A stretch of DNA of 58,427 bases from an uncultured Alphaproteobacteria bacterium (GTDB lineage: Bacteria; Pseudomonadota; Alphaproteobacteria; CAAHEQ01; UBA3637). The notes beneath the pieces are model-generated. The model did not search any database and was not told the DNA's origin. It was given only the letters and a program-made list of their open reading frames with translations. Shown here in pieces: positions 8,061 through 58,427 of this stretch; within the stretch, counting starts at the first letter, position 1; each line of letters opens with the position of its first letter. The stretch is taken from positions 1 to 58,427 of the forward strand of contig CALXXA010000002.1 of the NCBI GenBank assembly GCA_944392585.1. Reading direction: 5' to 3'. Position numbers and translations under genes: made by a program.

Positions 8061-8070
8061 GCTCCCTCTC

Positions 8071-34533: not shown

Positions 34534-34564
34534 TTTTCCCTCTTTAATAAAAAAACTACAAAAT

Positions 34565-34597
34565 ATTATAGACGAATGTTATTTTTAAGTCTATAAT
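34565..34597 (+). promoter_or_regulatory. candidate promoter with overlapping 9-bp inverted-repeat operator upstream of the VirB6-like array
   Basis: attatagac (34565-34573), 15 nt, then gtctataat (34589-34597), a perfect inverted repeat. The right arm contains TATAAT (34592-34597). TAGACG (34569-34574) sits 17 nt upstream as a -35 candidate. The ATG is at 34631. Confidence 0.4.
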
Positions 34598-34630
34598 TAA
34601 TGCAAAAATATTTTTAATTAAACGAGGCTG

Positions 34631-36334: not shown

Positions 36335-36345
36335 ACAGAACAACC

Positions 36346-37602: not shown

Positions 37603-37609
37603 GGGAAAA

Positions 37610-40435: not shown

Positions 40436-40464
40436 AAATTACATTTTCAATTAACTCTAACGTT

Positions 40465-40491
40465 CTTTAAAAGAGCTTTCTCCTTTTAAAG
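40465..40491 (+). terminator. weak AT-rich hairpin after the VirB6-like array
   Basis: ctttaaaag (40465-40473) pairs with cttttaaag (40483-40491) around a 9-nt loop, 30 nt after the stop of paralogue C. The stem is AT-rich and the T-run is poor. Confidence 0.3.
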
Positions 40492-40591
40492 AAATAACTT
40501 TTTCAAAAAAAAATTCATTTTTTTTATTTTTTGTCTATTTTCTCATGAAAAAATCTGCTATAAAGAAATACGATAAAAAGGAGGTAAATCT

Positions 40592-41563: not shown

Positions 41564-41586
41564 CTATAATGGACAAAGGGTAAATA

Positions 41587-42384: not shown

Positions 42385-42445
42385 TTTTAAGCAATCATTA
42401 ACCTTCTTATTTTATATATAAATATAGTTTTTATGTGAGGAAAAA

Positions 42446-43951
42446 ATGCCAACCCAGGAACAACTAAAACCACTAATAGAAGCTTTAACAGCATACAAAC
42501 AAGATCAACAAACGTTACAACCTGTCGTAGATACGGCTTTGACTATTTATGGGCAAGATTGGACAACTGCTTTAGCAAACGATCTAGAAAATTTACAAAA
42601 CGTTGACACGACAACCTTAACATTTTTAAAAGAAAAAGCAAATCATGCTATTTATTACTATGGAGCCCTGACTGCTTGGGAAGAGGCTCATCATTACTTA
42701 AATTCAACAAATCCTATTGATCCAAACTTATTAAAAGAACGCTTGCCTATTTTAGAATATTGGTTATCTTTATTCGGAGATGAAGGAAACAAGGTAAATG
42801 GAAAATTAAAGCAACTTTTTGTTAATATTTCTCCTGTACAACCGGGGGAAACTTCTTCACTGTCTTCCGAAACATTGAAGGGGGATTCGGATATCTCTGC
42901 AGACAATCAAGAGACTTCCTCTATTCAACAACTACATAATGACCGATCCGAAGTAGAACCGGTTGCGGAAATGACATCTTCTTTTGAAACCTCTGACAGT
43001 TCTTCCCCCGCCGTGAAATTAGAGGAGAAAGAATCCTTACCCCAAAGCTCCCTTTCGGAGGAGTCCGCTCCTTTTTATCCAGCAAATATTTCCGAAGATA
43101 CTCGTTTAAGTGAAGAAGATATACTAGAAGCAACCGCTTATTCTTCACAACCTGAATTGGGAAATATAGAAAATCAAGAAGAAAATACAAGTTTTCCAGT
43201 CCAAGAAGAACCGGATTCGGAATATCCGCTAGAAGAACAAAATACTTCTTTTAACGAAACAGAACCTTTAGAAGATGAGTTGATAGAAACGTCTGAACAG
43301 CCGACAGTTTCTGTTCCAGAAATCGTTCAGGAAGATCTAAATGTGGTTCCATCGCAAGAGATATCCGAAAAAGGAGATTCTTCAAAGAATTGGGAAATAA
43401 ATAATTATTTAAAAGAAAAAGAACTATATGAACAAGTTGTCGCATGGGTTACGGCGAAATGTATTCGCATGGGAAATATTGAATTAACAGCCTATCCACA
43501 TTATGGTTTTATTGTCGATTTAATGCAATCTTTAAAAGAGAATATCCAAAATTTATTAAGCAACCCACTACTTACCGAGATTATAGAAACACAGTTAAAA
43601 GAAGGTCGTAAAGGATTAGAAGGTTTTTTAAAAGTTCTTGAAACGGAATTAGCACACTTACCCGAGATAGAGAGTCAACCTTCGGATGCGATTATAGAAG
43701 GAATAGATGCGCGCTCTATTCTAGGGCAAATAGACACCAGCAATAAAAAAGAATATTTAGGTCCGGCTCCAGATGGATTTGAGTTGATTGAGGATCCTTA
43801 TGAGAAAAAAGAAGATATCGCCAAAGAAGATCTCTTAAAAGCATATGAAAAAGCCGAAGAAGATACGGGAGATTCAATAAACCATTTAAATATTCTGGAA
43901 GAAGAAACTTCACAATCTCAAGAAACCCAAACAACACCACGGAAAGGATAA
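42446..43951 (+). CDS. hypothetical highly acidic protein
   Basis: 501 aa. The central roughly 200 aa are extremely Glu/Ser/Pro-rich and look disordered, flanked by helical N- and C-terminal domains. No signal peptide seen. Confidence 0.5.
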   Translation: MPTQEQLKPLIEALTAYKQDQQTLQPVVDTALTIYGQDWTTALANDLENLQNVDTTTLTFLKEKANHAIYYYGALTAWEEAHHYLNSTNPIDPNLLKERLPILEYWLSLFGDEGNKVNGKLKQLFVNISPVQPGETSSLSSETLKGDSDISADNQETSSIQQLHNDRSEVEPVAEMTSSFETSDSSSPAVKLEEKESLPQSSLSEESAPFYPANISEDTRLSEEDILEATAYSSQPELGNIENQEENTSFPVQEEPDSEYPLEEQNTSFNETEPLEDELIETSEQPTVSVPEIVQEDLNVVPSQEISEKGDSSKNWEINNYLKEKELYEQVVAWVTAKCIRMGNIELTAYPHYGFIVDLMQSLKENIQNLLSNPLLTEIIETQLKEGRKGLEGFLKVLETELAHLPEIESQPSDAIIEGIDARSILGQIDTSNKKEYLGPAPDGFELIEDPYEKKEDIAKEDLLKAYEKAEEDTGDSINHLNILEEETSQSQETQTTPRKG

Positions 43952-43956
43952 ACAGA

Positions 43957-45450
43957 ATGCATATGAGATATATTTTAATGACTTGCATTTTAGCTTCTAC
44001 AAGTCTCGCTTTATTAGCGTGTCAACATCGAACAGCATCTTTACCTTATATGACAAAGGCTTCTTATATATCCTCTCCGGATTTTTCGAAGTCTGAAACA
44101 GGATTTTTATCGTCTCCGAGTTTAGAAAAACAAAACCCACTTCAAACTTCATCATCTTTTTATACTCCGCAAAGAAATTCTTCATACAAAGGAGTAAATA
44201 ATGCGGGAATAGTTCCTGTTATTAAGGGGAAAGAAGATTCGATCCATCCGCAAGGAGAGAATAATTATTATAGCTCACGACAGACTCGGTCGGCAGAGTT
44301 AACGCCTCAGGATATAAGAACGTCGCCACAAAAGCAGCTGCCTTGCACTCAATCGAAAGTTCCCCCTATGTTGCAAGGACAAACTTCAACGGACATGGTT
44401 AATATAGAAACGCCAATGCGCTGTCGTGTTCCGGAGCCGACATCTCGCATTATTTCAGATATTCCTTTAACACAGGGAGATTTTGAACTGACTCGAGTAG
44501 AAGAAAATGATGCTCTGCCACGTTATGAAGTCAATGGATATACCTTTGATAATCAACCTTTAGATATGGCGATTCAAGTTCTTGTATCCGAAGCAGATAT
44601 AAATGTCTATTCAGATGATGGCTTATTTCCCGATATGTCGGCACAAGATATCAGAGGAGAATTATCAGCTGTTATAGAAGAACTGACAGATTCGGCAGAT
44701 GCCTATGCTCATTATGACGCGAGTAAAAAAAGGTTGTATTTGTCTCACTGGGCTCGGTTTAGATTAAAAGTCCCCGGAGGATATATAGGAATGTATGCAG
44801 TTTTAGACGCCTTAAGAGGAGCTAATATTACGAACGTACAACCTGATTGGGGACAAAATGAACTTTATTTCCGTGTGACGAAATCACAAGAAGCCATTAT
44901 TCGCCGTTTAATTTCTTATTTGAAAGAAGATCCTCGTCTTTTAATGCTTGACATAAACGTTTATAAAGTTTACCCCAAAGGGGGTGCAAATATCTCATGG
45001 AGAAACGTTATTCAAAGCTTCGGAGATTATAAAGTGAATATGTCCATAAACGGTCTGCAAGGACGAATGATTATAACCGATCATCAAGAAGAGCAAAATT
45101 CATTTTTAAATAATCTAAAAGCATACGCTCAAGTTGATTTAGTTTCAAAAGGCGTCGCTGTTATGCCTAACGGATGGAAAGTTCGTTTTGACATAGGTCA
45201 GTGTTCATTTACAAACACTCCAGAAAAAGATTTATCTCTGCTATTACAGAGCAAAATACAAAGCACAGACCGCATAGAATCGAACATTGCGTTAGATACA
45301 GTGAATGGAGAAGTAACATCTTTTTACTCATTTTACAGTATAGATGATGATTTAAATATTGTCGGTATCCCCGGCACAGTTTTCAATCAAAGCACCGTCA
45401 TAGAGTATTTCATTACGATGAAACCTCGGATTATGCGTCTTATAAAATAA
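43957..45450 (+). CDS. outer-membrane lipoprotein with secretin-like N0 and C-terminal domains (type IVb PilN/BfpB/TcpC-style)
   Basis: 497 aa. Lipobox SLALLAC and a disordered Ser/Pro/Gln linker. FDNQPLDMAIQVLVSEADINVYSDD...LSAVIEELTDSADAYAHYDASKKRLYL resembles a secretin N0/NolW-like domain. LMLDINVYKVYPKGGANISW ... FLNNLKAYAQVDLVSKGVAVMPNGWKVRFDIGQ ... NIVGIPGTVFNQSTVIEYFITMKPRIM follows the order of the secretin-domain consensus. Recognition is by eye only. Confidence 0.5.
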   Translation: MHMRYILMTCILASTSLALLACQHRTASLPYMTKASYISSPDFSKSETGFLSSPSLEKQNPLQTSSSFYTPQRNSSYKGVNNAGIVPVIKGKEDSIHPQGENNYYSSRQTRSAELTPQDIRTSPQKQLPCTQSKVPPMLQGQTSTDMVNIETPMRCRVPEPTSRIISDIPLTQGDFELTRVEENDALPRYEVNGYTFDNQPLDMAIQVLVSEADINVYSDDGLFPDMSAQDIRGELSAVIEELTDSADAYAHYDASKKRLYLSHWARFRLKVPGGYIGMYAVLDALRGANITNVQPDWGQNELYFRVTKSQEAIIRRLISYLKEDPRLLMLDINVYKVYPKGGANISWRNVIQSFGDYKVNMSINGLQGRMIITDHQEEQNSFLNNLKAYAQVDLVSKGVAVMPNGWKVRFDIGQCSFTNTPEKDLSLLLQSKIQSTDRIESNIALDTVNGEVTSFYSFYSIDDDLNIVGIPGTVFNQSTVIEYFITMKPRIMRLIK

Positions 45451-45466
45451 AATAAAAGGGAAAGAA

Positions 45467-46138
45467 ATGACTATAGAAAAGAAACCTATATTAAAAGCAC
45501 CGATGCCTCCTTCTGGAATAAAGTCTCCGGCGGAAGCGAAGATATCCGCCTATACTCCAAGCATGAAAACAAATTCATTACCGAATGAAGTTGCATCAGG
45601 GAATCCGGGACAAAATACATCTATGCCACAACCTTCGTATGGATTAAGGGGAGAAGATTCTTCTGGGAATAAGCCGGAGAATTTTTCAAAGAATCAATTG
45701 ACGGAGGAACAACCCTCTGTATCGCCCGGTTCTGGTCTATATGATAATAATTTTGCGGCTCAATTTAATTTACCGCCCTCTATATTGACGACCAAAGCGA
45801 TGAGTTTTATTCTTGCGGGAGTATTCTTTTTTGGGATTATATTTGGAGCGAATGTTTTCGGAACCAGTACAACGACACATGGTCTACAAGGAGTTATTTT
45901 GAATCCTGGAGTTCCAGAAGGAAGGAAGCGCTGTGGGATAGCCGAAAAGACAGAAGGATGTGTTTTATTTATGATGAATGCATCACAACGGGACAGAGAA
46001 GTTCGTTCATTTTATGAACAAGCAGCGGCGATAACGAATGTTCCGGCGTATACCATAGAAATGGGAAATATCACATATGCGTCAACAATTATTCGTCCTG
46101 GCTATTTTGCACAAATAAATATTCCTCCGATACGGTAA
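45467..46138 (+). CDS. bitopic membrane protein (disordered N-terminus, one TM helix, about 90-aa C-terminal domain)
   Basis: 223 aa. Single TM helix MSFILAGVFFFGIIFGANVF. It starts 16 nt after the secretin-like gene and is the last gene of that operon. Confidence 0.45.
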   Translation: MTIEKKPILKAPMPPSGIKSPAEAKISAYTPSMKTNSLPNEVASGNPGQNTSMPQPSYGLRGEDSSGNKPENFSKNQLTEEQPSVSPGSGLYDNNFAAQFNLPPSILTTKAMSFILAGVFFFGIIFGANVFGTSTTTHGLQGVILNPGVPEGRKRCGIAEKTEGCVLFMMNASQRDREVRSFYEQAAAITNVPAYTIEMGNITYASTIIRPGYFAQINIPPIR

Positions 46139-46160
46139 CGCATTATATTTTAAGATAAAA

Positions 46161-46196
46161 AAAAATATAATCTCTTTAAAAAGAGATTATATTTTT
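46161..46196. terminator. bidirectional terminator between convergent operons
   Basis: aaaaatataatctc (46161-46174) pairs with gagattatattttt (46183-46196) around an 8-nt loop. An A-run flanks one side and a T-run the other. Confidence 0.65.
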
Positions 46197-46227
46197 ATGG
46201 ATATAGGCTTCAAATTATTAACTTTTA

Positions 46228-46983
46228 TTACTCACTGGTAAATTTGCGACAAAATGCCTTACCTTCTGAAACAATCTTGAAACGCTGCGGATAACATACC
46301 TCGGCGGTTACACCATTACCGCCTGCCATTTCAAATAAGCGTAAACCTTCACACTTCAATAAAGATTCTTTTCTTTTTGACCAATCACACTCTTTTTTCG
46401 CAACATCCGTGTTCCCCAAATTCTTTTCACACGAAGAACTTTCCTGCCCATCGATCTTCTTCTTCTCATAGTAAGAAGGCCTCTCGGCCTCATGAGCACA
46501 CCTACAAAAAGGCAAGTTATATCTCGTTACATTTTGTCCACTTCCTTCACAATCCCAACCATCCTCATTATATCCTTTTATATTAAAACACGTCTCATTC
46601 TCCATAGAAAAATCCGGGGTAGCCGTAAATTTTATCTCTAAATAACCTGTTCCAAGCGGATCGGCCGTTACAATCCCTCCATTATTTATATCGTCAAAGG
46701 GGAACGCAAGCAAATTGTCCCTATTACCTTTCGCCCATTCTTCCACATCATGTTTATAAATCTTATGGATTAAATCTGGAGTTATCTCATCTGCCGTTAA
46801 CAATTTTGCACCAAAAGAATTACACCATGATGCTCTGTTTTTCGCATCTAAACTTATTGTGCTTACATAATAGATATAACCATCTATTTCTGCTGTTTTA
46901 TATGCAAGTACACCATTATTATCTGCAAGTACACCATTATTATAAGAAAAGAACAAAAGTATCAGTAAAAATATTTTTCGCAT
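46228..46983 (-). CDS. secreted Cys-containing protein with lectin-like W-C-x3-G motif
   Basis: 251 aa. Signal peptide MRKIFLLILLFFSY and 10 Cys. IDGYIYYVSTISLDAKNRASWCNSFGAKLLTADE resembles IGGYVEEGKYIRSDIMLNWWSAGAWCLANGKKWASIGD in the C-terminus of the 709-aa pilin-like protein. GGGAGG RBS lies 18 nt after the stop of the 955-aa gene, so the two are probably co-transcribed. Confidence 0.55.
   Translation of the reverse strand: MRKIFLLILLFFSYNNGVLADNNGVLAYKTAEIDGYIYYVSTISLDAKNRASWCNSFGAKLLTADEITPDLIHKIYKHDVEEWAKGNRDNLLAFPFDDINNGGIVTADPLGTGYLEIKFTATPDFSMENETCFNIKGYNEDGWDCEGSGQNVTRYNLPFCRCAHEAERPSYYEKKKIDGQESSSCEKNLGNTDVAKKECDWSKRKESLLKCEGLRLFEMAGGNGVTAEVCYPQRFKIVSEGKAFCRKFTSE
46903..46944 (-). 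repeat. 21-bp tandem duplication in the 5' coding region of the 251-aa gene
   Basis: (a/c)tgcaagtacaccattattat occurs twice in tandem (46903-46923 and 46924-46944). It encodes NNGVLAD-NNGVLAY directly after the signal-peptide hydrophobic core. Confidence 0.9.
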
Positions 46984-47001
46984 ATTTTGCCTCCCACGGC
47001 T

Positions 47002-49869
47002 TTAATAATTATTAGTTTGATTCACACATTTCCCCACAAACTTCATTTGCTTGCCTTCATTTTTCATGATAAATCCCTTTGCCAAAGATGCTATACTACA
47101 TACTTGCCCTTCATTACACTTGGTGTCGGAATCATCTCCTAAAGTTACCTTTGATTCACCATCCTCCTTATCCGTACCAATGGTAAGGTTTTTTAAATTA
47201 TCCTCATTCTCATTCACATCTGCCCACTTTCCTATATAAAGAAGTCCGCTAGAATTTTTAGTCGGGGAATCTTCCCCAAAATACGCTGCAAGAGTCTTGA
47301 CAAGATAACAAAATTTTAGGGGTTTGCTTTTCGCTGCTAGTTGAGCTTTTGCTTTTTCTTCTCCACTCGCCCTTATCGAGAAAGAATTACTCGGGCTTCC
47401 CCATCGTACACATTGTTGTGGGAATGGGTCTTTGAAGTATGTATTAGTCGAGCAATAACATCCTACACCCGGACATTCACTAAAAAAGAACTCTCGATAA
47501 CACTCACCAGCTGCATCAAGACTACATTCTTTTTCTGCTGGATAATACCAGGGTACATTCGTTTCCTTCCCACAAGCTACTCCGATATTGTTTTCATGGT
47601 ACCCTTCTCTATACTGTAAACACGCTGGATAATAACCGCTCTTCTGTGTATTATACACATCGTCGTACGTAGTCTTCTTTAGGTTACTAATTCCGCCATT
47701 AATGGCAGATATACAATAACCCAAATCCGTCGGTATAGTCACGGTTAAAGTACAATCATAATCTCCGGAAGCCTCTTCTAAACAAACTTGACTTTCATCA
47801 TCCCAATAATATCCTGATTTCGTACAACAGCTATCTGTGTTATAATATATCATTTCTTCAGAACAACATTTATTTTCACCAGGTATCCATGTTCCTCCTG
47901 CCTCTATACACCCGTCTTGAGTAGTTATTGACGTACACCCCTCTTTTTCCGACCATTTTCCCCCGGTTTTAGAACAACACGCATTTGTATTCGTCTCAAT
48001 TAATGACGGGGTACAACATTGATTTGACGCACCAATCCAAATTCCTCCCAAAGCAGAACAATCCTCTTCATTATCAGGAATATCAGTATCCAAATCAAAA
48101 CTACATCTCTGATCTAGATTAGGTTTGTCACAACATATAGTCTCTTCTTCTCCAGTATCTGTATCTTGAACAACTTTAGTTATTGTACAACACTCCCCAT
48201 CAACAACACCTGTCGCAGTAGAAGGACAACATGTTCCATTAATAACATTTTTCCTGTCAGCAGGGCAACAAACAATGTCACTATCAACGATTACAGGCTC
48301 TGTATCTTTTTCACAGCACTTAAAATTTTCTTCATTAATAAACGCCCAATTTCTACCCGCCGCCTCACAACATTCTTCTTTCTTCTCAATAGTACTTTCT
48401 TCCGAAAGAGTCTCATAATCTTTCGGACAACAATAGTTGTTCACAGCTTGATTCAGGTTTTGATTCAGGTTACAGCACATATTGTCTTTGCTTGTAAAAA
48501 CATACTCAGAACTGTTGATACAACACATTCCATTAGCATCGTCTGTTTTAACCATTGTCACCTTATCAACCCATACGCCTTTCTCATGCCCATCATAAGC
48601 GTTTTCACAACAAACCTGTGTATTTATGTTGCTCGGATCACAACATTGTTCACCCACCCAATGATAACCATTCGCTTCACAACACATTCCATTAGCATCG
48701 TCTGTTTTAACCATTGTCACCTTATTAACCCAATGATGCTTATTCGCTTCACAACATGCCTTTGAATCCGTTTTCCAAGTTTTATTATCATTTGTACAAC
48801 ACTCTCCATTTTTAATAAACTCACTATGGCAACAAAAAACTTGATTTCCTGATCCTGAAGGCTGATCGCCTTTATTACAACAAATCCCCTCATCATTAAA
48901 CCATTCATACAACCCTATACAACACATTCCATTAGCACCGTCTGTTTTAACCCCATCCTCATCGACCCAATGATAATTATTCGCTTCACAACATGCCTTA
49001 GTATCTGTGTCGTCCTTAGCACAACATGTCCCCTCAGCCCATACGCCTCCGTTTGCTTTACAACATGCCTTAGTATCTGTGTCGGCCTTAGCACAACATA
49101 TTCCATTAGCATCGTCTGTTTCAACCCCATTCTCATCAACCCAAGAACCTGCCTCATCATGCCCATTATAGGTGTTTTCACAACAAACCTGTGTAGTTAT
49201 GTTGTTCGGATAACAACATTGTTCACCCACAGCATAGCTACCCTCCGGACACTCAGAAGGAGGATCAATAGGATCAATAGGAACAATAGGATCAGGATTC
49301 GGTGTCGTAGGATCCGGGAAAAGATCCGAAACCGATGTATCATACGCAAAAACAAATGTATTCCTCTTTCCTTCCGAACACTCTGTAACTGTAAGAGATC
49401 CCGTACACTCTGAAATCCCTTTATCCCCTTGACATAAAAAAACTTCTCTTTTTATCGGAAATTCTTCTCTAACCATCTCTTGCAACCTCTTGCAAGCTCG
49501 ACCGGGAACTTCCTTAACTATAACATAAAATCTATTCCCTTTCCCCTTCTCATGCGCATAGTTAAAACCTCCTTGGTTCTCTTTGAAACCAACCAAATTA
49601 TACTTTTCCCCTGTCTCATAATTCTTCAAAGCCGGATTACTAAACGATTCCACGGCTCTTAAATCCACTTGCTTATATATCTGATTCGCTTGGTGCTTGG
49701 ACATCGCATATGCATATGCAACCAAAAAAAGAATACTCAATATCGCTACAACAGCTAAAACACCTAATATCTCTATAATGCTCCGCCCTTTTTCCGACTT
49801 GACAAAATGTCTCTTAAAATATGATAAATGACGATTCTGTTCCAATTTTTCCTTCAAATGTCTAAGCAT
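47002..49869 (-). CDS. giant Cys-Cys-repeat protein with type IV prepilin-like N-terminus (paralogue 1)
   Basis: 955 aa. A 28-aa basic leader ends in Gly, then RSIIE (Glu at +5) and a roughly 22-aa hydrophobic helix (ILGVLAVVAILSILFLVAYAYA), which is a class III/prepilin signal. There follow a small pilin-like domain, the Pro-rich linker PDPTTPNPDPIVPIDPIDPP, about 490 aa holding 27 CC dipeptides, and a unique roughly 265-aa C-terminal domain. AGGAGG RBS. Confidence 0.7.
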   Translation of the reverse strand: MLRHLKEKLEQNRHLSYFKRHFVKSEKGRSIIEILGVLAVVAILSILFLVAYAYAMSKHQANQIYKQVDLRAVESFSNPALKNYETGEKYNLVGFKENQGGFNYAHEKGKGNRFYVIVKEVPGRACKRLQEMVREEFPIKREVFLCQGDKGISECTGSLTVTECSEGKRNTFVFAYDTSVSDLFPDPTTPNPDPIVPIDPIDPPSECPEGSYAVGEQCCYPNNITTQVCCENTYNGHDEAGSWVDENGVETDDANGICCAKADTDTKACCKANGGVWAEGTCCAKDDTDTKACCEANNYHWVDEDGVKTDGANGMCCIGLYEWFNDEGICCNKGDQPSGSGNQVFCCHSEFIKNGECCTNDNKTWKTDSKACCEANKHHWVNKVTMVKTDDANGMCCEANGYHWVGEQCCDPSNINTQVCCENAYDGHEKGVWVDKVTMVKTDDANGMCCINSSEYVFTSKDNMCCNLNQNLNQAVNNYCCPKDYETLSEESTIEKKEECCEAAGRNWAFINEENFKCCEKDTEPVIVDSDIVCCPADRKNVINGTCCPSTATGVVDGECCTITKVVQDTDTGEEETICCDKPNLDQRCSFDLDTDIPDNEEDCSALGGIWIGASNQCCTPSLIETNTNACCSKTGGKWSEKEGCTSITTQDGCIEAGGTWIPGENKCCSEEMIYYNTDSCCTKSGYYWDDESQVCLEEASGDYDCTLTVTIPTDLGYCISAINGGISNLKKTTYDDVYNTQKSGYYPACLQYREGYHENNIGVACGKETNVPWYYPAEKECSLDAAGECYREFFFSECPGVGCYCSTNTYFKDPFPQQCVRWGSPSNSFSIRASGEEKAKAQLAAKSKPLKFCYLVKTLAAYFGEDSPTKNSSGLLYIGKWADVNENEDNLKNLTIGTDKEDGESKVTLGDDSDTKCNEGQVCSIASLAKGFIMKNEGKQMKFVGKCVNQTNNY
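48125..48838 (-). repeat. segment shared with the second pilin-like gene (copy in paralogue 1)
   Basis: 48125-48565 aligns by eye to 55618-56067 with about ten substitutions, one 3-nt indel and one 6-nt indel. 48725-48838 continues the match to 56068-56180. Paralogue 1 carries one extra unit of about 159 nt in between. Confidence 0.85.
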
Positions 49870-49980
49870 TCAAGCCTCCTATATTTACACCTATTGTACA
49901 ACATACACCATATTTCCATCCAGATGTCAAGCAATTTTAAAAAAAAATTCACTTTTACAATTCACAATAAACTATGAATT

Positions 49981-50022
49981 TAAAAAGAAAGAGAAGGTTT
50001 TAAAGACCTTCTCTTTTTTTTC
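49981..50022. terminator. rho-independent terminator downstream of tuf (copy 1)
   Basis: aaagagaaggt (49988-49998) pairs with accttctcttt (50006-50016) around a 7-nt loop. T-runs lie on both strands. It is 31 nt past the tuf stop. Confidence 0.8.
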
Positions 50023-50097
50023 TAAGTTATCTTGAAATAATTTTAGGTTACTTCAATATCTTGGAGACAACTCCAGCACCAACCGTGTGACCCCCTT
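49981..50097 (-). repeat. direct repeat copy 1: tuf 3' end plus terminator
   Basis: Identical base for base to 58311-58427 (offset 8330 nt). The match runs to the window edge, so its full length is unknown. Confidence 0.95.
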
Positions 50098-51238
50098 CCC
50101 TGATCGCAAACCTTAGTCCTTCATCCATCGCTACAGGAACTATCAACTTCACCGTCATCTTCACATTGTCTCCGGGCATCACCATCTCTACTCCCTCAGG
50201 CAACTCTATCGTCCCCGTCACATCCGTCGTCCGAAAGTAAAATTGAGGCCGGTAATTACTGAAAAATGGCGTATGACGTCCTCCTTCCTCTTTCGTCAAT
50301 ATATAACATTCCGCCGTAAACTCCGTATGCGGCGTTATCGTCCCAGGTGCCGCCAATACTTGGCCCCTCTCGACTTCTTCCCTCTTCGTGCCTCTCAATA
50401 ATACTCCAACATTGTCCCCGGCTTCCCCTTGGTCCAATAACTTCCGGAACATCTCTATCCCTGTACACGTCGTCTTCTGCGTCGGCCTTAAACCTACTAT
50501 CTCTACTTCATCTCCAACCTTTATTACTCCTCTCTCTATACGTCCCGTCACTACCGTCCCTCGTCCCGATATGCTAAAAACATCTTCTATCGGCATCAAA
50601 TACGGCTTGTCCTTCGGACGATCCGGTTGCGGAATATATCTATCAACCTCTTCCATCAACTTCACTATCGTATCATGCCCTATCTCCGGACGCGTCCCTT
50701 CCAATGCACATAACGCTGAACCTTTCACTATCGGTATCTCATCCCCAGGAAATTGATATGAACTCAATAAATCCCTAACTTCCATCTCTACCAATTCCAA
50801 TAACTCTGGATCATCTACCTGATCAACCTTGTTCATATATACTACCAACGCAGGAACTCCTACCTGCCTCGCTAACAATATATGCTCCCGCGTCTGCGGC
50901 ATCGGACCATCCGCCGCACTCACTACCAATATCGCTCCATCCATCTGCGCCGCACCAGTTATCATGTTCTTTACATAATCCGCGTGACCAGGACAGTCTA
51001 CATGCGCATAATGCCTATTCTTCGTCTCATACTCTACATGCGACGTGCTTATCGTTATCCCTCGCGCCCTCTCCTCTGGCGCCTTATCTATGTTCGCATA
51101 ATCTACAAACGAGGCTCCTCCCTGCTCCGACAATACTTTCGTTATCGCTGCCGTCAACGTCGTCTTCCCATGATCAACATGTCCTATCGTCCCTATGTTG
51201 CAATGGGGTTTAATCCTCTCAAACTTTTCTTTTGCCAT
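50048..51238 (-). CDS. tuf: elongation factor Tu
   Basis: 396 aa. Canonical EF-Tu ([25 protein letters not shown]). Confidence 0.97.
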
Positions 51239-51299
51239 CTCTCTATCTTCCTTCTCAAAAAAATGCTGCTCCTCTTAAAAGAAGAGCAGCTTATTTTAA

Positions 51300-53378
51300 T
51301 TAACCATTCATTTTTGCTTTAATTTCATCAGCAACTGCTTGTGGTACTTCAGCATAATGATCAAAGACCATAGTGTACTGTGCACGACCTTGGCTCATTG
51401 AACGCAAAGTACTGACATATCCAAACATGTTTGATAATGGAACTGTCGCATCTATTACTCGTGCATTTCCTCGCTGATCCATCCCGGAAACTTGACCTCG
51501 CCGACTATTTAAGTCTCCAATAATGTCTCCCATATAGTCTTCCGGTGTCACAACTTCAACTTTCATAACAGGCTCCAATAAAACCGGCCTGGCTTTCGCA
51601 ATTCCCTCACGGAAAGCTGCTCTTGCCGCGATTTCGAAAGCCATTGTTGACGAGTCAACATCATGATATGCCCCATCATATAAAGTCGCTTTAAAGTCTG
51701 TACACGGGAAACCTGCTAATACACCAGTTTCTTTCGCTTGTATCAATCCTTTTTCCACGCCGGGGATGTATTCTTTCGGAACATTTCCACCGACGACTTT
51801 ATTTTCAAATTGATACCCGGATCCTGCCGGAAGAGGTTCAAATAAAATTTTTACACGAGCAAATTGCCCGGCTCCTCCAGATTGTTTCTTATGCGTATAA
51901 TCACAATCATAGTTCTGTGTAATAGTCTCACGATACGCCACTTGAGGAGCTCCGACAATCGCATCTACACCAAATTCACGTTTCATACGATCAACAATAA
52001 TTTCCAGGTGTAATTCTCCCATTCCTTTAATAATGGTTTGCCCTGTTTCCGTATTCGACGTAACTCGAAAAGATGGATCTTCTGCCGCTAATCGACTTAG
52101 AGCATTCCCCATTTTTTCAATATCTCCTTTTGTCTTCGGTTCAACGGCGATTTCAATCACAGGCTCCGGAAATTCCATTTTTTCCAAAATAACTGGATGC
52201 GTTGGACTACATAAAGTTTCTCCTGTCGTCGTCATTTTTAAACCACATAAAGCGACAATATCTCCCGCACGAGCTTCTTTAATATCTTCACGATGGTTAG
52301 CATGCATTAATAACATGCGACCAACACGTTCTTTTTCGCCTTTAACAGAGTTTAAGACATAAGAACCACTTTCTAACACACCTCTATAAACACGCATAAA
52401 AGTCACAGAACCAACAAAAGGATCTGTCATAATCTTAAAGGCCAAGCCGGCAAAAGGAGCATCATCTTTAGATGCAACTTCAACATCTGAACCATCTTTT
52501 TCTGAAATTGCATGAGCCGGTGGAATATCTATCGGCGAAGGTAAATAATCTACAACTGCATCCAATAAAGGTTGAATCCCTTTGTTTTTAAAAGCCGTAC
52601 CACAAAAAACAGGAACAAATTTTTGTTCAATAGTTCCTTTTCGGATACACTTTTTCAAAGTCTCCATATCGGGTTCATTCCCTTCCAAATAGCTTTCCAT
52701 AGCAGCATCATCCATTTCAACTGCCATTTCAACTAATTCATTATAATACCGCTCTGCTTGTTCTTTAAGCTCAGCAGGAATCTCTTTTTCTTCAAAAGAA
52801 GCTCCTAAATCTTCGGAATGCCAAATAATCGCTTTTTTCTTTAAAACATCAACAATCCCGACAAAATCTGCTTCTGCTCCGATTGGTAAAGCCATCACCA
52901 TCGGTTTGGCTCCCAACCGCTCTTTAATCATATCTACGCAACGGAAAAAGTTTGCTCCGGTACGGTCCATTTTATTAGCAAAACAAATACGCGGAACACG
53001 ATATTTATCCGCTTGTCTCCAAACGGTTTCAGATTGAGGTTGAACTCCGGACACACCGTCAAAAACAGCAATGGCTCCATCAAGAACGCGTAAACACCGT
53101 TCAACTTCTACGGTAAAATCCACATGTCCCGGCGTATCAATAACATTAATACGATGCCCTTTCCAAAAAGCCGTCGTAGCTGCAGAAGTAATTGTAATTC
53201 CACGTTCCTGCTCTTGTTCCATCCAATCCATAGTAGCCGCACCATCATGGACTTCACCAATCTTATGAGACTTTCCCGTATAATACAAGATACGTTCTGT
53301 TGTTGTTGTTTTACCAGCATCAATATGAGCCATAATCCCAATATTTCTATATAATTCAATTGGAGTTGTTCGTGCCAT
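51300..53378 (-). CDS. fusA: elongation factor G
   Basis: 692 aa. Canonical EF-G ([28 protein letters not shown]). Confidence 0.97.
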
Positions 53379-53396
53379 AACCTAAAATCCCCCTAT

Positions 53397-53867
53397 TTAC
53401 CACTTATAATGAGAGAACGCTTTATTCGCTTCGGCCATTTTATGAACATCTTCGCGTTTACGAATAGCATTTCCCCTATTATTAAAAGCATCCATTAATT
53501 CGCCAAATAATTTTTCTTCCATTGTTTTCTCGGAACGTTTTCTGGCTGCCTCTATAATCCACCGAATAGCCAAAGCTTGTCTGCGATCCGGACGAACTTC
53601 AACAGGCACCTGATAAGTTGCCCCGCCCACTCTGCGAGATTTGACTTCAACCACAGGCTTAACATTTTCCAATGCATTATGGAAAATTTCCAATCCATTT
53701 TGCTTTGATTTTTCTTCTAACCTGGCGATAGCGCCATAAACGATGCGTTCAGCTGTACATTTTTGGCCTCGCATCATAACACTATTCATAAACTTAGCGA
53801 CAACTTTATCTCCGAATTTAGCATCCGGATTAATTTCGCGTTTTTCTGCTGCGTGTCTACGTGACAT
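53397..53867 (-). CDS. rpsG: 30S ribosomal protein S7
   Basis: 156 aa. [12 protein letters not shown]...[11 protein letters not shown] is the canonical S7 sequence. Confidence 0.97.
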
Positions 53868-53879
53868 TTTTTACTCCTT

Positions 53880-54251
53880 CTATTTAGGCCGTTTCGCTCC
53901 GTACAAGGATCTGGCTTGCTTACGATTAGCAACCCCTTGAGTATCCAACGTACCGCGAATAATATGATAACGAACACCGGGCAAGTCCTTGACACGTCCG
54001 CCACGAATCAGGACGACGCTATGTTCTTGAAGGTTATGACCTTCCCCCGGGATATAACTGGTAACTTCAAAGCCATTTGTCAAACGAACACGTGCGACTT
54101 TACGCAAAGCGGAGTTTGGTTTCTTTGGCGTTGTAGTATACACACGCGTGCAAACGCCTCTCTTTTGAGGACAAGCCTGCAACGCCGGAACTTTATTTCT
54201 TTTAACAGAAGCTTTTCTAGGCTTTCTGGTTAACTGATTAATAGTAGGCAT
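53880..54251 (-). CDS. rpsL: 30S ribosomal protein S12
   Basis: 123 aa. [12 protein letters not shown]...[16 protein letters not shown] is the canonical S12 sequence. Confidence 0.97.
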
Positions 54252-54420
54252 ATTATTTCCCTATAAATAAAAATTAAAAAAATCTTTGAACGACCTCTTT
54301 CAGGCAATTCAAAGCACCTATCCCGACTCACTGCTCAGATAAATCCGACTGGCCGGGGACTTTCTATCAAAGCCGTTAGCAAAGTCTTCATTACTTGCCC
54401 AACTTCGGAAAGCTGAGTGT

Positions 54421-54449
54421 ATGTAAACATAGTTTTCATCTTATGTCAA
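54421..54449 (-). promoter_or_regulatory. candidate str operon promoter
   Basis: On the minus strand, TTGACA (54444-54449), a 17-nt spacer, then TTACAT (54421-54426). This would give a leader of about 170 nt before rpsL. Confidence 0.3.
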
Positions 54450-54607
54450 GATATTTTTATAGCTCTATTGTCTTTTTATAAAATCTTCCTCTTCCCCAAA
54501 AGCTTTTTTATATCATAATCAACATGGATATTTTTACACCTTTATCTTTAAAAAAAACACCCTGTAAACACATAAAGCCTCATTATTTCGTTAAACACAT
54601 CATGTTT

Positions 54608-54629
54608 AAGGGGTGCCTAAGCACCCCTT
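54608..54629 (-). terminator. GC-rich hairpin directly after the 709-aa gene
   Basis: aaggggtgc (54608-54616) pairs with gcacccctt (54621-54629) around a 4-nt loop, 3 nt past the stop codon. It is an unusually GC-rich stem for this genome. The U-tract on the minus strand is poor. Confidence 0.55.
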
Positions 54630-54632
54630 CCT

Positions 54633-56762
54633 CTATTTTACACAAATCGCGCGACCTCCTGAACTTCTAGATCCTAAAAAAGTCTCCGAATCACTTATTA
54701 TTTCTATTATTTTCCCGTTTTCTTCTATATATCCGCCTCCTTGTACTTGATATGCAACACCCTCCATTGAAGCAGTTGACGTCCATCCACTTATCTGAGC
54801 AGAAAATTCAGAACATTTTGAGTCTGCTATTTTTTTACATGCATCATCTTCAGTCAAACCCTCCCCTGTAGTTAAGCGCGTATAACATCCCAGATCCGTT
54901 ACAGATCCTCCCGCCCAATTCGGGCAAAGATCATCTCCGATGGATGCCCACTTTTTCCCGTTAGCAAGACACCAAGCTCCGGCACTCCACCAGTTCAACA
55001 TTATATCAGAGCGAATATACTTACCTTCTTCAACATAACCTCCTATCTGCTGACACGTACCATACAATGCTTTTGGGGTATCCGTTGTTAGCTTTTTTTT
55101 ACGATTTCTATCTTCATATTGTGCATTACAAAATGTATTTGGCGGGCAAGGAACCTGATAGCTTAACGCAAGTACGTTATTATGACTTGCTTTAGAACAA
55201 ACCGGAGCAGCAGAACTATTTACTTCCCCACCTTCACACCCTGTACTAAAGAACGGACCATTATCATATCCGTAGCTTGGACGACAATTAGTATTAAGTG
55301 CCGAGCAATCCTCTCCTGCACATTGCGGATCCATTGATGATACCCAACATATAGTTTCTTTTGTATTTAACTTACCAATAATACGACAGCTTGTTTCTGC
55401 AGTACATTTATCTTCTTCTTTTTCTCCGTTCCATGTATAGCCTGCCGCCTCACAACACATTTGAGTGTTCCGTATTCGGGTAAGAGTACAACAATATGGT
55501 GTTTCATTTTCCTTTTGAATCCATTCTCCATCTTCGGAAATACATGTTTCTTCATCTGTGGGAACAGGATCTTCTAAATCATTTTCTCCTTCATCTGTAC
55601 ACCGAGGATCCAAGGGATTGTCACAACATATAGTCACTTCTTCTCCAGTATCTGTATCTTGAACAACTTTAGTTATTGTACAACACTCCCCATCAACAAC
55701 ACCTGTCGCGGTAAAAGGACAACATGTTCCATTAATAACCTTTTTCCTGTCAGCAGGGCAACAAACAATGTCACTATCAACGATTACAGGCTCTGTATCT
55801 TTTTCACAGCACTTAAAATTTTCTTCATTAATAAACGCCCAATTTCTACCCGCCGCTTCACAACATGCTATTTTCTTCTCAATAGTACTTTCTTCCGAAA
55901 GAGTCTCATAATTTTTCGGACAACAATAAAAGTTGTTCACAGCTTGATTCAGGTTTTGATTCAGGTTACAGCACATACTGTCTTTGCTTGTAAAAACATA
56001 CTCAGAACTGTTGATACAACACATTCCATTAGCATCGTCTGTTTCTGTTTCAACCATTGTCTCCTTATTAACCCAATGATGATATTTCGCTTCACAACAC
56101 GTCTTTGAATCCGTTTTCCAAGTTTCATTATCATTTGTGCAACACTCTTCATTTTCAATAAACTCATTATGGCAACAAAAGCTCCCAAACATTTTGCCGT
56201 TAGGACAAGGATCAGGTTCTGGATCAGGGTCTGGAATATTTAAAGTCCCCCGAACACCTATGTCATACGCAAACACAAATGTATTGTTTTCTCCTTCTTC
56301 ACACTCGGAAACGGCTCCCATACATTCAGTGGCGTTCAAGTCTCCCTGACATAAGAAAACTTCTCTTTCTATCGGGAAATCTTCTAGGACCATTTTTTGT
56401 AACATTTTACATACTCTCACAGGAACCTTCTTAACAATCACATAAAATTTCTTATTAAACCCTTTCTCTTGTGAATAGGAAATATTACTCAGCTCCTTTT
56501 CAAATCCGATCAAATTATATTTTGCCCCAGGCTCATAATTCATCAAAGCCGGATTACTAAACGATTCCACTGCTCTTAAATCTACTTGCTTATATATCTG
56601 ATTCGCTTTATGCTTGGAAATCGCATATGTATATCCTGTAATAGCGGCTATGCTCAATATACCAATAATCGCTAAAACAGCTAATACCTCAAGCATACTT
56701 CGTCCAGTATCCGCTTTAGTCTTGTATGTTTTAACATAATTTTCTTTTAGATTCTTGAGCAT
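54633..56762 (-). CDS. giant Cys-Cys-repeat protein with type IV prepilin-like N-terminus (paralogue 2), lectin-motif C-terminus
   Basis: 709 aa. A 20-aa leader ends in Gly, then RSMLE (Glu at +5) and the hydrophobic helix VLAVLAIIGILSIAAITGYTYA. The same pilin-like domain as paralogue 1 follows (ANQIYKQVDLRAVESFSNPAL, FYVIVK, REVFLCQGD, NTFVFAYD), then the linker PDPDPEPDP and 14 CC dipeptides. The roughly 330-aa C-terminal region is unrelated to paralogue 1 and contains NWWSAGAWCLANGKKWASIGD. Confidence 0.7.
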   Translation of the reverse strand: MLKNLKENYVKTYKTKADTGRSMLEVLAVLAIIGILSIAAITGYTYAISKHKANQIYKQVDLRAVESFSNPALMNYEPGAKYNLIGFEKELSNISYSQEKGFNKKFYVIVKKVPVRVCKMLQKMVLEDFPIEREVFLCQGDLNATECMGAVSECEEGENNTFVFAYDIGVRGTLNIPDPDPEPDPCPNGKMFGSFCCHNEFIENEECCTNDNETWKTDSKTCCEAKYHHWVNKETMVETETDDANGMCCINSSEYVFTSKDSMCCNLNQNLNQAVNNFYCCPKNYETLSEESTIEKKIACCEAAGRNWAFINEENFKCCEKDTEPVIVDSDIVCCPADRKKVINGTCCPFTATGVVDGECCTITKVVQDTDTGEEVTICCDNPLDPRCTDEGENDLEDPVPTDEETCISEDGEWIQKENETPYCCTLTRIRNTQMCCEAAGYTWNGEKEEDKCTAETSCRIIGKLNTKETICWVSSMDPQCAGEDCSALNTNCRPSYGYDNGPFFSTGCEGGEVNSSAAPVCSKASHNNVLALSYQVPCPPNTFCNAQYEDRNRKKKLTTDTPKALYGTCQQIGGYVEEGKYIRSDIMLNWWSAGAWCLANGKKWASIGDDLCPNWAGGSVTDLGCYTRLTTGEGLTEDDACKKIADSKCSEFSAQISGWTSTASMEGVAYQVQGGGYIEENGKIIEIISDSETFLGSRSSGGRAICVK
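55618..56180 (-). repeat. segment shared with the first pilin-like gene (copy in paralogue 2)
   Basis: Aligns to 48125-48838 (see that feature). It encodes MCCINSSEYVFTSKD.MCCNLNQNLNQAVNN..CCP..YETLSEESTIEKK..CCEAAGRNWAFINEENFKCCEKDTEPVIVDSDIVCCPADRK.VINGTCCP.TATGVVDGECCTITKVVQDTDTGEE.TICCD. Confidence 0.85.
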
Positions 56763-56890
56763 TGTGGCCTCCTATGTTTTACACTTTTACAAGGATATAC
56801 ATATTTTAAAAATTAAATCAATACAAATTGTATATTTTCATAATAATTCTTAACTTTATTATCAAAAATTAATGAATACGCCTTAAATAT

Positions 56891-58201
56891 CTACCTGTCA
56901 AATTGCCTTTCCTTTAATCTCTTCCTCAAGGCAACCGAAAGTTTCTCTGGAGCATTTTTCCCTATTCGCTCTTTCCCAAACAAGGATCTCCGTAAAGAAT
57001 GATCTACATATTTCCCTCTTTCATCCGCACTCATTAAACGAATTTCTTTCGCTTTTTTAGAACGTATGCGAGATATTTCTTGCGCTCTCATAGTTTCTTC
57101 ATTTTTTTCAGTCAAAATTCGTTCCGTTTCAGTATATCTTAATACCTCTGCCCACTTTTGAGCCGAACGATTATATCTATCTTTGACCAGTATGTCCGAT
57201 TCATTATCCACCAACAACTGCACCATGTCAGAATCCCCTCTTTTAACAGCTTCAATTAATCCTGTGCTGTTATCATTATTAAAATCATTTATATTTGCTT
57301 TTTCTTCAATAAGTCTTTGGACCATATTTTTATTCCCTGTCCTACACGCTTTTATAAATAACGTTTCTCCCTTCTTGTCTTTTATATAAATATTTGAATT
57401 TCTTTCTAATAAGATACGAAATAAACTTTCATGTCCTCTCTCTACAGCATACATCAAAGACGTATATCCTTCTTTATCTGTCGCATTCACATCCGCCCCT
57501 TTATTAATCAATAAAAGAGCAATATCCTTATGCCCGTATTTAATTGCTTCCATCAAAGAAGTGGTTCCATCTTTATCCTTTTTATTAATATTCTCTTTTC
57601 TTTCCAACAACAATTCAACAATCTTAAAATAACCTTTTTGAGAAGCTCTCATCAAAGATCCTCTTTTATTGATATCTTCACACTTGACATCCGCTCCCTT
57701 CTCAAGAAGCATCTGGACAATTTTTAAATTACCGGTTTCTACCGATTTCATTAACACCGTACGATTATTTTGATCTTTAGCATTTACATCAGCTCCTTTT
57801 TCTAAAAGTATCTGAATGGTTTCTTCAAAGCCTCCTTTAATAGCTTCCATTAAAGCCGTAATTCCATACTTGCTTCTATTGTTAATATCAGCCCCTTTTC
57901 CAATTAATACTTGTAATATATTTGTACGACCTGCTCCCGCAGCTTTCATCAATATCGTATCTCCATATTTATCTCTCGTATTAATATCTGCCCTTTTTTC
58001 TATTAATTCATTGACTTTCTCCAAAGAAACTTTTCTCCAATCAAGTGAAAGTAATTCTTTTGTCGCCTCTTCACGACACTTATTATTCCTTGGCATCATC
58101 AAATAGGCTTTTTTAAGAATCTCATCCGAAGCACCCGCATATTGAAGTTTTTCCAAATCTTTTTCCGTATACACATGTTCTAAGTCAAATTTTTGTAACA
58201 T
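56891..58201 (-). CDS. ankyrin repeat protein
   Basis: 436 aa. About nine tandem ANK units (GDTILMKAAGAGRTNILQVLIGKGADINNRS, GITALMEAIKGGFEETIQILLEKGADVNAKD, and so on), followed by a basic helical tail. Confidence 0.9.
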   Translation of the reverse strand: MLQKFDLEHVYTEKDLEKLQYAGASDEILKKAYLMMPRNNKCREEATKELLSLDWRKVSLEKVNELIEKRADINTRDKYGDTILMKAAGAGRTNILQVLIGKGADINNRSKYGITALMEAIKGGFEETIQILLEKGADVNAKDQNNRTVLMKSVETGNLKIVQMLLEKGADVKCEDINKRGSLMRASQKGYFKIVELLLERKENINKKDKDGTTSLMEAIKYGHKDIALLLINKGADVNATDKEGYTSLMYAVERGHESLFRILLERNSNIYIKDKKGETLFIKACRTGNKNMVQRLIEEKANINDFNNDNSTGLIEAVKRGDSDMVQLLVDNESDILVKDRYNRSAQKWAEVLRYTETERILTEKNEETMRAQEISRIRSKKAKEIRLMSADERGKYVDHSLRRSLFGKERIGKNAPEKLSVALRKRLKERQFDR

Positions 58202-58241
58202 ATCAAAACTCCTTTATTTACATTTTTGAGTTAATATATGT

Positions 58242-58269
58242 ATAATACAGATTTGTATATTTTTGTCAA
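58242..58269 (-). promoter_or_regulatory. candidate promoter of the ankyrin / pilin-like paralogue 2 unit
   Basis: On the minus strand, TTGACA (58264-58269), a 16-nt spacer, then TATTAT (58242-58247), about 40 nt upstream of the ATG at 58201. A homologous TTGACA (49925-49930) lies upstream of paralogue 1. Confidence 0.4.
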
Positions 58270-58310
58270 TTTTTTTATAGAATAATTTAACAATTCAATG
58301 ACTTTTTTAA

Positions 58311-58352
58311 TAAAAAGAAAGAGAAGGTTTTAAAGACCTTCTCTTTTTTTTC
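58311..58352. terminator. rho-independent terminator downstream of tuf (copy 2)
   Basis: Identical sequence to the terminator at 49981-50022. Confidence 0.8.
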
Positions 58353-58377
58353 TAAGTTATCTTGAAATAATTTTAGG

Positions 58378-58427
58378 TTACTTCAATATCTTGGAGACAA
58401 CTCCAGCACCAACCGTGTGACCCCCTT
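58378..58427 (-). CDS. tuf: elongation factor Tu, second copy (3' end only; gene continues beyond the window)
   Basis: The last 16 codons plus the stop are identical to 50048-50097 (...[14 protein letters not shown]). Confidence 0.85.
   Translation of the reverse strand, partial: GGHTVGAGVVSKILK

Follow-up and report, generated by a model that had tools for sequence, protein, structure and literature searches.

The 709-amino-acid (aa) protein P2 is encoded on the minus strand at positions 54633-56762 of a 58,427-nt stretch of DNA (the window; contig CALXXA010000002.1, assembly GCA_944392585.1). On balance, P2 is probably a modular type IV(b)-like pilin surface protein whose distal domain is C-type-lectin-like, and it would act as an adhesin or a ligand-docking tip. 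The host is an uncultured, low-GC gut alphaproteobacterium, and a GcrA gene in the window was consistent with Alphaproteobacteria. A 955-aa paralogue, P1, is encoded 4.8 kb away on the same strand; both open reading frames (ORFs) were present on the ORF map as given in a preliminary description of the sequence (54633-56762 and 47002-49869, both on the minus strand). Related loci and their proteins are designated L### and P####, respectively. The parts of P2 are as follows.

54633-56762, minus strand: P2, 709 aa (ORF map)
56703..56762, minus strand: leader, residues 1-20, MLKNLKENYVKTYKTKADTG, basic; its last residue is Gly-1 of a class III (prepilin-type) signal (sequence)
56253..56702, minus strand: pilin-like module, residues 21-170, with a hydrophobic N-terminal helix, RSMLEVLAVLAIIGILSIAAITGY..., and a small globular alpha/beta domain (AlphaFold2 [AF2] model, profile search)
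56202..56237, minus strand: Pro-rich hinge, residues 176-187, IPDPDPEPDPCP (sequence)
55398..56201, minus strand: di-cysteine (CC) repeat stalk, residues 188-455, with 31 Cys and 14 CC dipeptides (residue count)
55068..55397, minus strand: unique Cys-rich middle region, residues 456-565, with 9 Cys and no detectable relatives outside the species
54636..55067, minus strand: putative compact C-type-lectin-like domain (CTLD-like) tip, residues 566-709, ending ...GGRAICVK (homology, AF2, Foldseek)
54933..54995, minus strand: core motif of the tip, NWWSAGAWCLANGKKWASIGD, residues 590-610, matching the "WxxAxxxC" of CTLD helix alpha1 and the "G..LASI" strand (family alignment)

The N terminus of P2 carried the elements of a class III signal: a short basic leader precedes a hydrophobic helix, with Gly at -1 and Glu at +5. 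The junction read ...KADTG|RSMLEVLAVLAIIGILSIAAITGY, with Arg at +1, and RSMLE led into a hydrophobic stretch of approximately 22 residues. Across 113 family members, G20, R21, S22, and M23 were at least 90% conserved and E25 was invariant, and Arg occupied +1 in 114 of 118 relatives. The leader measured 20 aa in P2 and 28 aa in P1. When a profile of the module was compared with the PDB, the best match was the type IVb pilin TcpA (E of 1e-4 over 113 positions, reaching into the globular domain), followed by further type IV pilins at E values of 0.01 to 0.1. With the same profile, 640 relatives were retrieved from the protein collection; several of these carried Bundlin or PilS Pfam matches (PF05307/PF08805), and some were named PilE or GspH. 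The AF2 model of the module, built from 113 sequences, had a predicted local distance difference test score (pLDDT) of 84.9 and comprised a 47-residue helix (residues 23-69) and a four-stranded beta-sheet. The preliminary description was supported in assigning a prepilin-like signal and a pilin-like module to both paralogues.

In the tip, NWWSAGAWCLANGKKWASIGD was the most conserved block of the family: W591, W592, and C598 were invariant in 113 sequences, N590, S593, A594, and W597 were at least 90% conserved, and the C-terminal Cys, C707, was nearly invariant. To judge from this conservation, the motif is not a product of chance and marks a real protein family. In alignments with solved C-type lectins, W591, A594, C598, and C707 fell on the equivalent motif, and C598 and C707 would form a disulfide joining alpha1 to the C-terminal strand. 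An exhaustive phmmer search with residues 455-709 recovered the orthologue P0001, a eukaryotic protein composed of seven bona fide Lectin_C domains (P0007), and eight small bacterial proteins, and a tip profile search recovered approximately 126 small proteins of approximately 125 to 135 aa that aligned to P2 residues ~566-709. The stand-alone proteins that were inspected carried Sec signal peptides, and these proteins had no Pfam domain and no recorded NCBI name. Among PDB entries, the tip profiles matched C-type lectins alone, including the mosquito proteins mosGCTL-6 (E of 0.0018) and mosGCTL-3 as well as CD69, CLEC2D, and PLA2R, with NWWSAGAWCLANGKKWASIGD aligned to the NW..A..C...G..LA.I of solved C-type lectins and of P0007.

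The predicted structure pointed in the same direction. The top 50 PDB matches of the AF2 tip model in Foldseek were all CTLD folds, albeit with weak scores (probability of ≤0.98, E of ≥0.033, and template-modelling [TM] score of 0.35 to 0.53); the leading matches were the C-terminal domain of Bd2740, a Bdellovibrio fiber tip (probability of 0.98, E of 0.033), and LLT1, EMS16, NKR-P1, and LYVE-1. The top 50 matches in BFVD were essentially all CTLDs, and the best was a viral C-type lectin (probability of 0.99, E of 0.006). The domain is of a compact form (~110 aa), to which P2 adds a lineage-specific insertion of ~40 aa. The tip therefore probably has a CTLD-like fold and represents a new family of the superfamily, as judged from these models and profiles.

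Similarity to canonical CTLDs was restricted in extent. Sub-threshold Pfam matches among 113 members were to Xlink in 31 (best E of 0.0027), Lectin_C in 3, Lcl_C/DUF1566 in 2, and FGE-sulfatase in 1; no member reached the gathering score of any CTLD clan model (Lectin_C, Xlink, Lcl_C/DUF1566, FGE-sulfatase, or Intimin_C), and P2 itself had no match at all. The tip family aligned with one canonical CTLD repeat of P0007 over 30 columns (hhalign probability of 15%). At the sequence level, the link to canonical CTLDs is confined to the beta1-alpha1-beta1' segment and covers only the first 30 to 40 columns. The preliminary description had held that the motif recalls C-type-lectin/DUF1566-like folds. 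It does appear to mark a CTLD-like domain, as the PDB profiles and Foldseek indicate, whereas membership in DUF1566, Lectin_C, or FGE-sulfatase was not upheld, since no gathering score was reached. "Lectin" as an activity was likewise not upheld, given the short N-terminal span of similarity and the lack of a visible EPN/QPD or WND motif.

Between pilin module and tip lie the hinge, the stalk, and the middle region. The P1 counterpart of the hinge is encoded in part by a 9-nt tandem repeat (3.8 copies, 49261-49294). The Pfam model Galaxin_repeat (PF24748) scored 27.5 bits on P1, against a cut-off of 28, and did not match P2. A jackhmmer search of all fetched loci with the middle region found only the window and L003, and comparison of this region with the L003 orthologue gave a pN/pS (ratio of non-synonymous to synonymous change per site) of 1.46. 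Over residues 386-709, P2 and the L003 orthologue showed 40.7 non-synonymous and 4.3 synonymous differences (pN/pS of 2.5), while residues 1-385 showed 28 and 11, respectively (pN/pS of 0.63). These values suggest diversifying selection on the distal half of P2.

The domain map of P2, in which a pilin module is joined to unrelated modules, recurred throughout a large family. A scan in which each GTDB species was represented by one genome gave at least 567 confirmed copies of the pilin-like module (among at least 600 stretches), and 80 loci were kept for analysis; almost all belonged to metagenome-assembled genomes (MAGs) of uncultured Alphaproteobacteria from human, ruminant, rabbit, and other guts, often with several copies per contig. 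The 80 loci contained 102 ORFs with the signal, 90 of them complete, with lengths of 120 to 1101 aa (median, 443 aa) and 0 to 17% Cys. Some of these ORFs were short (120-210 aa), clustered, and like ordinary pilins, and many were long and Cys-rich with diverse C termini. "Constant anchor, variable tip", which the preliminary description had read from P2 and P1, is therefore the design of the whole expanded family, and the survey of related genomes that it had proposed showed the same carrier joined to many different C termini. In a local HMM search, the tip domain occupied the C termini of approximately 17 to 20 of the 90 complete ORFs, two of which had two copies. In addition, stand-alone tip proteins with signal peptides were encoded directly beside pilin-like genes in five loci (L006, L034, L038, L052, and L092, the last fetched via the tip family and not via the pilin module).

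A number of results weigh against the reading of P2 as a pilin with a CTLD-like tip. The AF2 tip model was of moderate confidence (pLDDT of 73.8), with the ~40-aa insertion poorly modelled, and the evidence for a CTLD was sub-threshold throughout, both in Foldseek (E of ≥0.006, TM score of 0.35 to 0.53) and in profile searches (E of ≥0.0018, with coverage limited to the domain's N-terminal third). No EPN/QPD or WND Ca2+/sugar-binding motif was seen on reading the P2 tip and the family consensus lines, a reading made without a pattern search, and carbohydrate binding is therefore not implied. Pfam N_methyl (PF07963) scored 10.8 to 13.4 bits against a cut-off of 21.2, and PilS scored 15.3 bits on P2 (E of 0.021) against a cut-off of 22. 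The residue at +1 is Arg, not Phe or Met, and Arg is unusual at this position in prepilin peptidase substrates. Foldseek of the N-terminal model against the PDB returned no pilins, the top matches being a PilO model and Arp2/3 p34; this outcome was judged uninformative, probably because of the long protruding helix. Genes for pilus or type II secretion system (T2SS) assembly were absent from the 30 window ORFs scanned with Pfam (6819-20325 and 32013-46138) and from the surroundings of the pilin-like genes examined (Pfam on neighbors in L047, L057, and L080; precomputed Pfam around P0220 and P0149). Dozens of carrier copies per genome are atypical for minor pilins. Finally, the contrast in pN/pS between the two halves of P2 (Fisher P of 0.025) comes from one pair of sequences with small counts.

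An alternative is that the tip is not a ligand-binding adhesin. The CTLD-like domain might instead form a cap with a structural or oligomerization role, or it might dock a secreted partner in the way that the lectin-fold domain of CofB docks CofJ, a reading that we regard as possible, if rather doubtful. It is favored by the lack of a visible Ca/sugar motif, by the stand-alone secreted homologues encoded beside pilin-like genes, and by a secreted protein with a weak tip-family match that is encoded after P1, as well as by two precedents, the lectin fold of CofB, which is repurposed for protein binding (PMC6048534), and the CTLD of Bd2740, which is trimeric and Ca-free (PMC10769870). Nothing spoke directly against it, although the high pN/pS of the C-terminal half is more in keeping with a surface exposed to ligands or to the immune system than with a cap whose role is purely structural. 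A cap or docking role refines the preferred reading of P2 as a modular pilin and does not replace it.

The protein after P1 (251 aa, 46228-46983) resembled the first half of the tip family in its N-terminal part, marginally so (hhalign E of 2.3e-4, probability of 44%, 38 columns), and its L004 orthologue matched the family at a similarly marginal hmmsearch E of 7e-4. It may thus be the counterpart of the P2 tip in stand-alone form. A perfect 21-nt tandem duplication at 46903-46943 doubles NNGVLAD where its signal peptide ends; in the L004 orthologue, the unit occurs once.

The main rival concerns the other end of the protein. It holds that P2 and its relatives are not pilus subunits and that the class III-like N terminus is a mere signal or anchor for lineage-specific Cys-rich envelope or secreted proteins that would be displayed or released independently of a type IV filament. 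Expanded families of proteins with prepilin signals in Planctomycetes and Verrucomicrobia offer an analogy. The dozens of copies per genome, their size range of 120 to 1101 aa, Arg+1 with the sub-threshold N_methyl score, the failure of Foldseek to retrieve pilins, and the lack of assembly machinery beside any examined family member are all in keeping with it. Gly-1, Glu+5, and the ~22-residue hydrophobic helix are nonetheless strictly conserved, the profile similarity runs into the globular domain of TcpA, and the members of 120 to 210 aa look like ordinary pilins and are clustered. Furthermore, a scan of all fetched loci for PilD and GspE signature motifs found a single A24 peptidase, encoded in a related MAG (Peptidase_A24, L047:2975-3679, E of 1.6e-14). 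This rival was judged rather unlikely. Arg+1 is probably why standard signatures miss the family.

A broader proposal, which we put forward tentatively and consider less likely than not, is that gut Alphaproteobacteria possess a lineage-specific display system. It would consist of an atypical prepilin-like anchor (G|RSMVE, with Arg+1) on dozens of paralogues per genome, interchangeable disulfide-rich stalks and tips that include an undescribed CTLD-like family, modules exchanged by recombination between paralogues, and small secreted CTLD-like partners, and it might operate independently of canonical co-encoded type IV pilus machinery.

P2 and P1 lie on either side of rpsL-rpsG-fusA-tuf, and all genes of the region are on the minus strand (ORF map). 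In gene order, the region reads as follows.

58311-58427, minus strand: copy of the tuf 3' end with its hairpin, upstream of the ankyrin gene; 117 nt, 100% identical to 49981-50097
56891-58201, minus strand: ankyrin-repeat protein, 436 aa, before P2 and first of the genes in order (ORF map)
55615-56075, minus strand: stalk segment within P2, 95 to 98% DNA-identical to P1 48122-48573 (300 nt at 97%, 122 nt at 98%), a likely gene-conversion tract (DNA comparison)
50048-54251, minus strand: rpsL, rpsG, fusA, and tuf, between P2 and P1 (ORF map)
47002-49869, minus strand: P1, 955 aa, with signal, pilin module, and hinge as in P2, a longer CC stalk, and an unrelated tip of ~250 to 300 aa ending ...KCVNQTNNY
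46228-46983, minus strand: 251-aa ORF, Sec-secreted, directly downstream of P1 (ORF map)

Pairwise alignment confirmed that the prepilin-like signal, the pilin-like module, and the Pro-rich hinge are common to the two proteins, as is part of the stalk with its CC repeats. In BLASTP, residues 1-180 of P2 were ~61 to 65% identical to P1, and residues 187-385 corresponded to P1 337-585, with residues 241-385 near-identical and one extra 45-aa repeat unit in P1; weak likeness of CC type continued to P2 residue ~458, and nothing aligned further on. DNA identity was 73 to 78% in the N-terminal modules, 89 to 91% at 56016-56180, and 95 to 98% in the stalk segment, and it stopped sharply at 55615, the 3' edge of that segment and only 2 nt from the breakpoint of 55617 proposed beforehand. 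A common N-terminal part therefore exists, but it amounts to ~54% of P2, not two-thirds, and is a mosaic; similarly, the C terminus of "roughly 330 aa" is indeed unrelated, with the qualification that the fully unrelated part measures ~250 aa and is preceded by ~70 aa of weakly similar CC-type sequence. The higher identity of the stalk than of the N-terminal module makes conversion between the paralogues likely, and the mosaic is likely to reflect a duplication that is old and a gene conversion within the stalk that is recent.

That the two C termini are homologous and have diverged beyond detection was considered very improbable. Both are Cys-rich, and the weak CC-type similarity extends ~70 aa past the DNA breakpoint; against this, hhalign of the tip-family profile with the P1 tip gave a probability of 0.2%, BLASTP aligned nothing beyond P2 residue ~458, and the P2 tip has more than 100 relatives, none of them like P1. 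The P1 tip, for its part, had no PDB match and no relatives outside the species (jackhmmer, all fetched loci). Homology of the tips was rejected on this hhalign, jackhmmer, and PDB profile evidence, and the unrelated C termini described at the outset thus survived proper alignment.

Programmed tip switching by a shufflon or by cassettes, the mechanism of R64 PilV and the logic to which the preliminary description had appealed, has next to no likelihood as the source of the two tips: common 5' parts with different 3' ends would suit it, as would a contig from another sample that fuses the P2 N terminus to the P1 tip (P0002, L001), but both genes are complete and share one strand, the 4.8 kb that separate them hold essential ribosomal genes, the stretch 46000-58427 contained no inverted repeats of ≥40 nt and only one imperfect 20-nt pair, inside P2, and the ORF map showed no silent cassettes or recombinase-sized ORF beside P1 or P2, the neighbors' domains not having been searched specifically for a recombinase. 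Inverted-repeat switching was rejected on the repeat search and the ORF map. The contig in question (BRZ_RE NODE_7261; P0002 at 4286-6562) reads fusA-tuf-ank-[P2 N terminus and stalk/P1 tip]-267 aa; both of its switch points fall within repeats (tuf, and 55615-56044 versus 48122-48548), and its coverage is 3.3x, so that P0002 could have arisen naturally by recombination or be a chimera created during assembly. The arrangement of the window is retained in three other assemblies.

Those three independent assemblies (L003, L090, and L091) repeated the order ank-P2-rpsL-rpsG-fusA, and the P1 arrangement was repeated in L002, L004, and L005. Stalk repeat number varies among strains, with P1-type proteins of 955 aa here, 976 aa (P0004), and 1034 aa (P0003). 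Variation in the family thus appears to arise via paralogue recombination, repeat-number change, and fast tip evolution, and the exchange of modules between paralogues is suggested by the conversion tract together with the P0002 chimera. Because the tuf 3' end recurs at 58311-58427, each paralogue lies downstream of a tuf copy. These copies appear to be the mark of an old segmental duplication, and the 117-nt repeat implies that a second tuf copy should lie just beyond the edge of the window. Contigs L002, L090, and L091 of other assemblies all end at this repeat.

Taken together, the results are consistent with the following course of events. P1 and P2 are products of a duplication, with a copy of tuf upstream of each, and have probably swapped a stalk segment since then by gene conversion; their tips are unrelated. 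Prepilin peptidase would cut P2 after Gly20, and the N-terminal helix would dock into a type IV filament or a short pseudopilus, most likely at its tip. A rigid, disulfide-bonded stalk would hold the CTLD-like domain off the cell, where a gut ligand, either glycan or protein, could be bound, and varied tips, varied stalk lengths, and fast tip evolution would diversify binding specificity or antigenicity.

Other features of the region were also recorded. A GC-rich hairpin with a 9-bp stem (AAGGGGTGC-TTAG-GCACCCCTT) lies at 54608-54629, 4 nt past the P2 stop codon; it has no U-tract on the coding strand, and a 381-nt spacer separates P2 from rpsL. In three unrelated loci (56891-58201 of the window, L080:4755-7184, and L092:7750-8092), a pilin-like or tip-family gene has an ankyrin-repeat protein encoded next to it, and the matches of these ankyrin proteins to models of Legionella Ank effectors were far below the cut-off and confined to the repeats. 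Pfam, NCBIfam, and PADLOC, applied to P2, P1, and their neighbors, gave no significant family for either paralogue. The ~14-kb block adjoining P1 (32013-46138) had one family assignment, a double helix-turn-helix regulator at 40592-41563, and also includes a predicted lipoprotein of 497 aa (43957-45450) and acidic Ser/Glu-rich proteins. At 34631-40435 on the plus strand are three tandem polytopic membrane paralogues of 567, 418, and 941 aa that share the motif FPxxLID.LIRLGFVI.L.PLFV; none had a Pfam or NCBIfam match, and the sole hint was that the 941-aa protein matched the VirB6 homologue TrwI in the PDB, at an insignificant E of 0.32. Locus L080, from a gut alphaproteobacterial MAG, contains a gene for a serum amyloid A domain protein (PF00277, E of 6e-17; 171-830) and, among short pilin-like genes, a phage large terminase gene (2244-3632).

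Humans and animals commonly carry uncultured gut Alphaproteobacteria, and we know of no work on how these bacteria attach to their surroundings; a search of the literature on pili in RF32-type gut Alphaproteobacteria found nothing relevant. The present analysis points to a large pilin-like carrier family that is invisible to standard pilin signatures and would therefore be missed by InterPro-based censuses of modular pilins, to an unannotated CTLD-like domain family of more than 100 members, both stand-alone and fused, and to tips that appear to diversify by paralogue recombination and fast evolution. Should these proteins be adhesins, they would be candidates for setting the specificity for host or mucus, and they are possible strain-typing markers in metagenomes.

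Four known systems bear comparison with P2. In the R64 PilV shufflon adhesin, a type IVb-type minor pilin, the N-terminal part is constant, and binding specificity is set by C-terminal segments that alternate. P2 and P1 share with PilV the constant N-terminal part and alternative C termini; unlike in R64, no invertible segments, sfx-type inverted repeats, or Rci recombinase were seen at their loci (no domain search was directed at recombinases), and the variants are separate full-length paralogous genes that would diversify by duplication, gene conversion, and point substitution.

The tip has the WxxAxxxC helix followed by the G..LASI strand, and Cys at both the alpha1 helix and the C-terminal strand, in common with the CTLD superfamily (Lectin_C, Link/Xlink, Lcl_C/DUF1566, and Bd2740). 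A close parallel is Bd2740, the trimeric, Ca-free CTLD tip of Bdellovibrio MAT fibers (PMC10769870), which is likewise of a compact form without a Ca site and stands, as the P2 domain would, at the distal tip of a long fiber-like adhesin. Unlike canonical CTLDs, the P2 tip reaches the threshold of no Pfam clan family, resembles them only over the ~30 to 40 N-terminal columns, and has extra Cys pairs of its own (CPNW...C) and the ~40-aa insertion.

CofB is a type IVb minor pilin whose lectin-fold tip docks a secreted protein (PMC6048534). Like CofB and TcpB, of enterotoxigenic Escherichia coli CFA/III and Vibrio cholerae TCP, respectively (PMC6048534), P2 appears to have a type IVb-like pilin module, the best solved relative of its family being TcpA. 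Both designs run from a long leader through pilin domain, linker, and beta-rich domains to a lectin-fold end domain, putative in P2 and at the pilus tip in CofB/TcpB, and small secreted proteins are encoded nearby in both. In contrast to P2, CofB carries a lectin fold of the H type rather than a CTLD, and one copy of its gene exists, inside a pilus operon with its machinery; P2 has no operon or machinery adjacent to it among the neighbors scanned, and its family has many copies and a Cys-rich stalk.

The nearest general design is that of the modular type IV pilins, such as Streptococcus sanguinis PilB with a vWA module and PilC with a ConA-like lectin module (Raynaud et al. 2021, PMC8179133). 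As in those proteins, the pilin module of P2 carries a grafted C-terminal functional or adhesive module via a linker, many architectures exist per carrier, and the proposed location is display at the tip (PMC8179133). A C-type lectin is not mentioned in the main text of that paper, its 15 most frequent architectures included, its dataset being outside this statement. P2 differs in that the signal of its family escapes the standard signature (sub-threshold N_methyl, Arg+1), a long stalk of di-cysteine repeats serves as the linker, a putative CTLD-like domain absent from Pfam takes the place of the grafted module, and the family has grown to many copies in each genome. The P2 locus thus varies a design already known from modular pilins and does not represent a system of a new kind.

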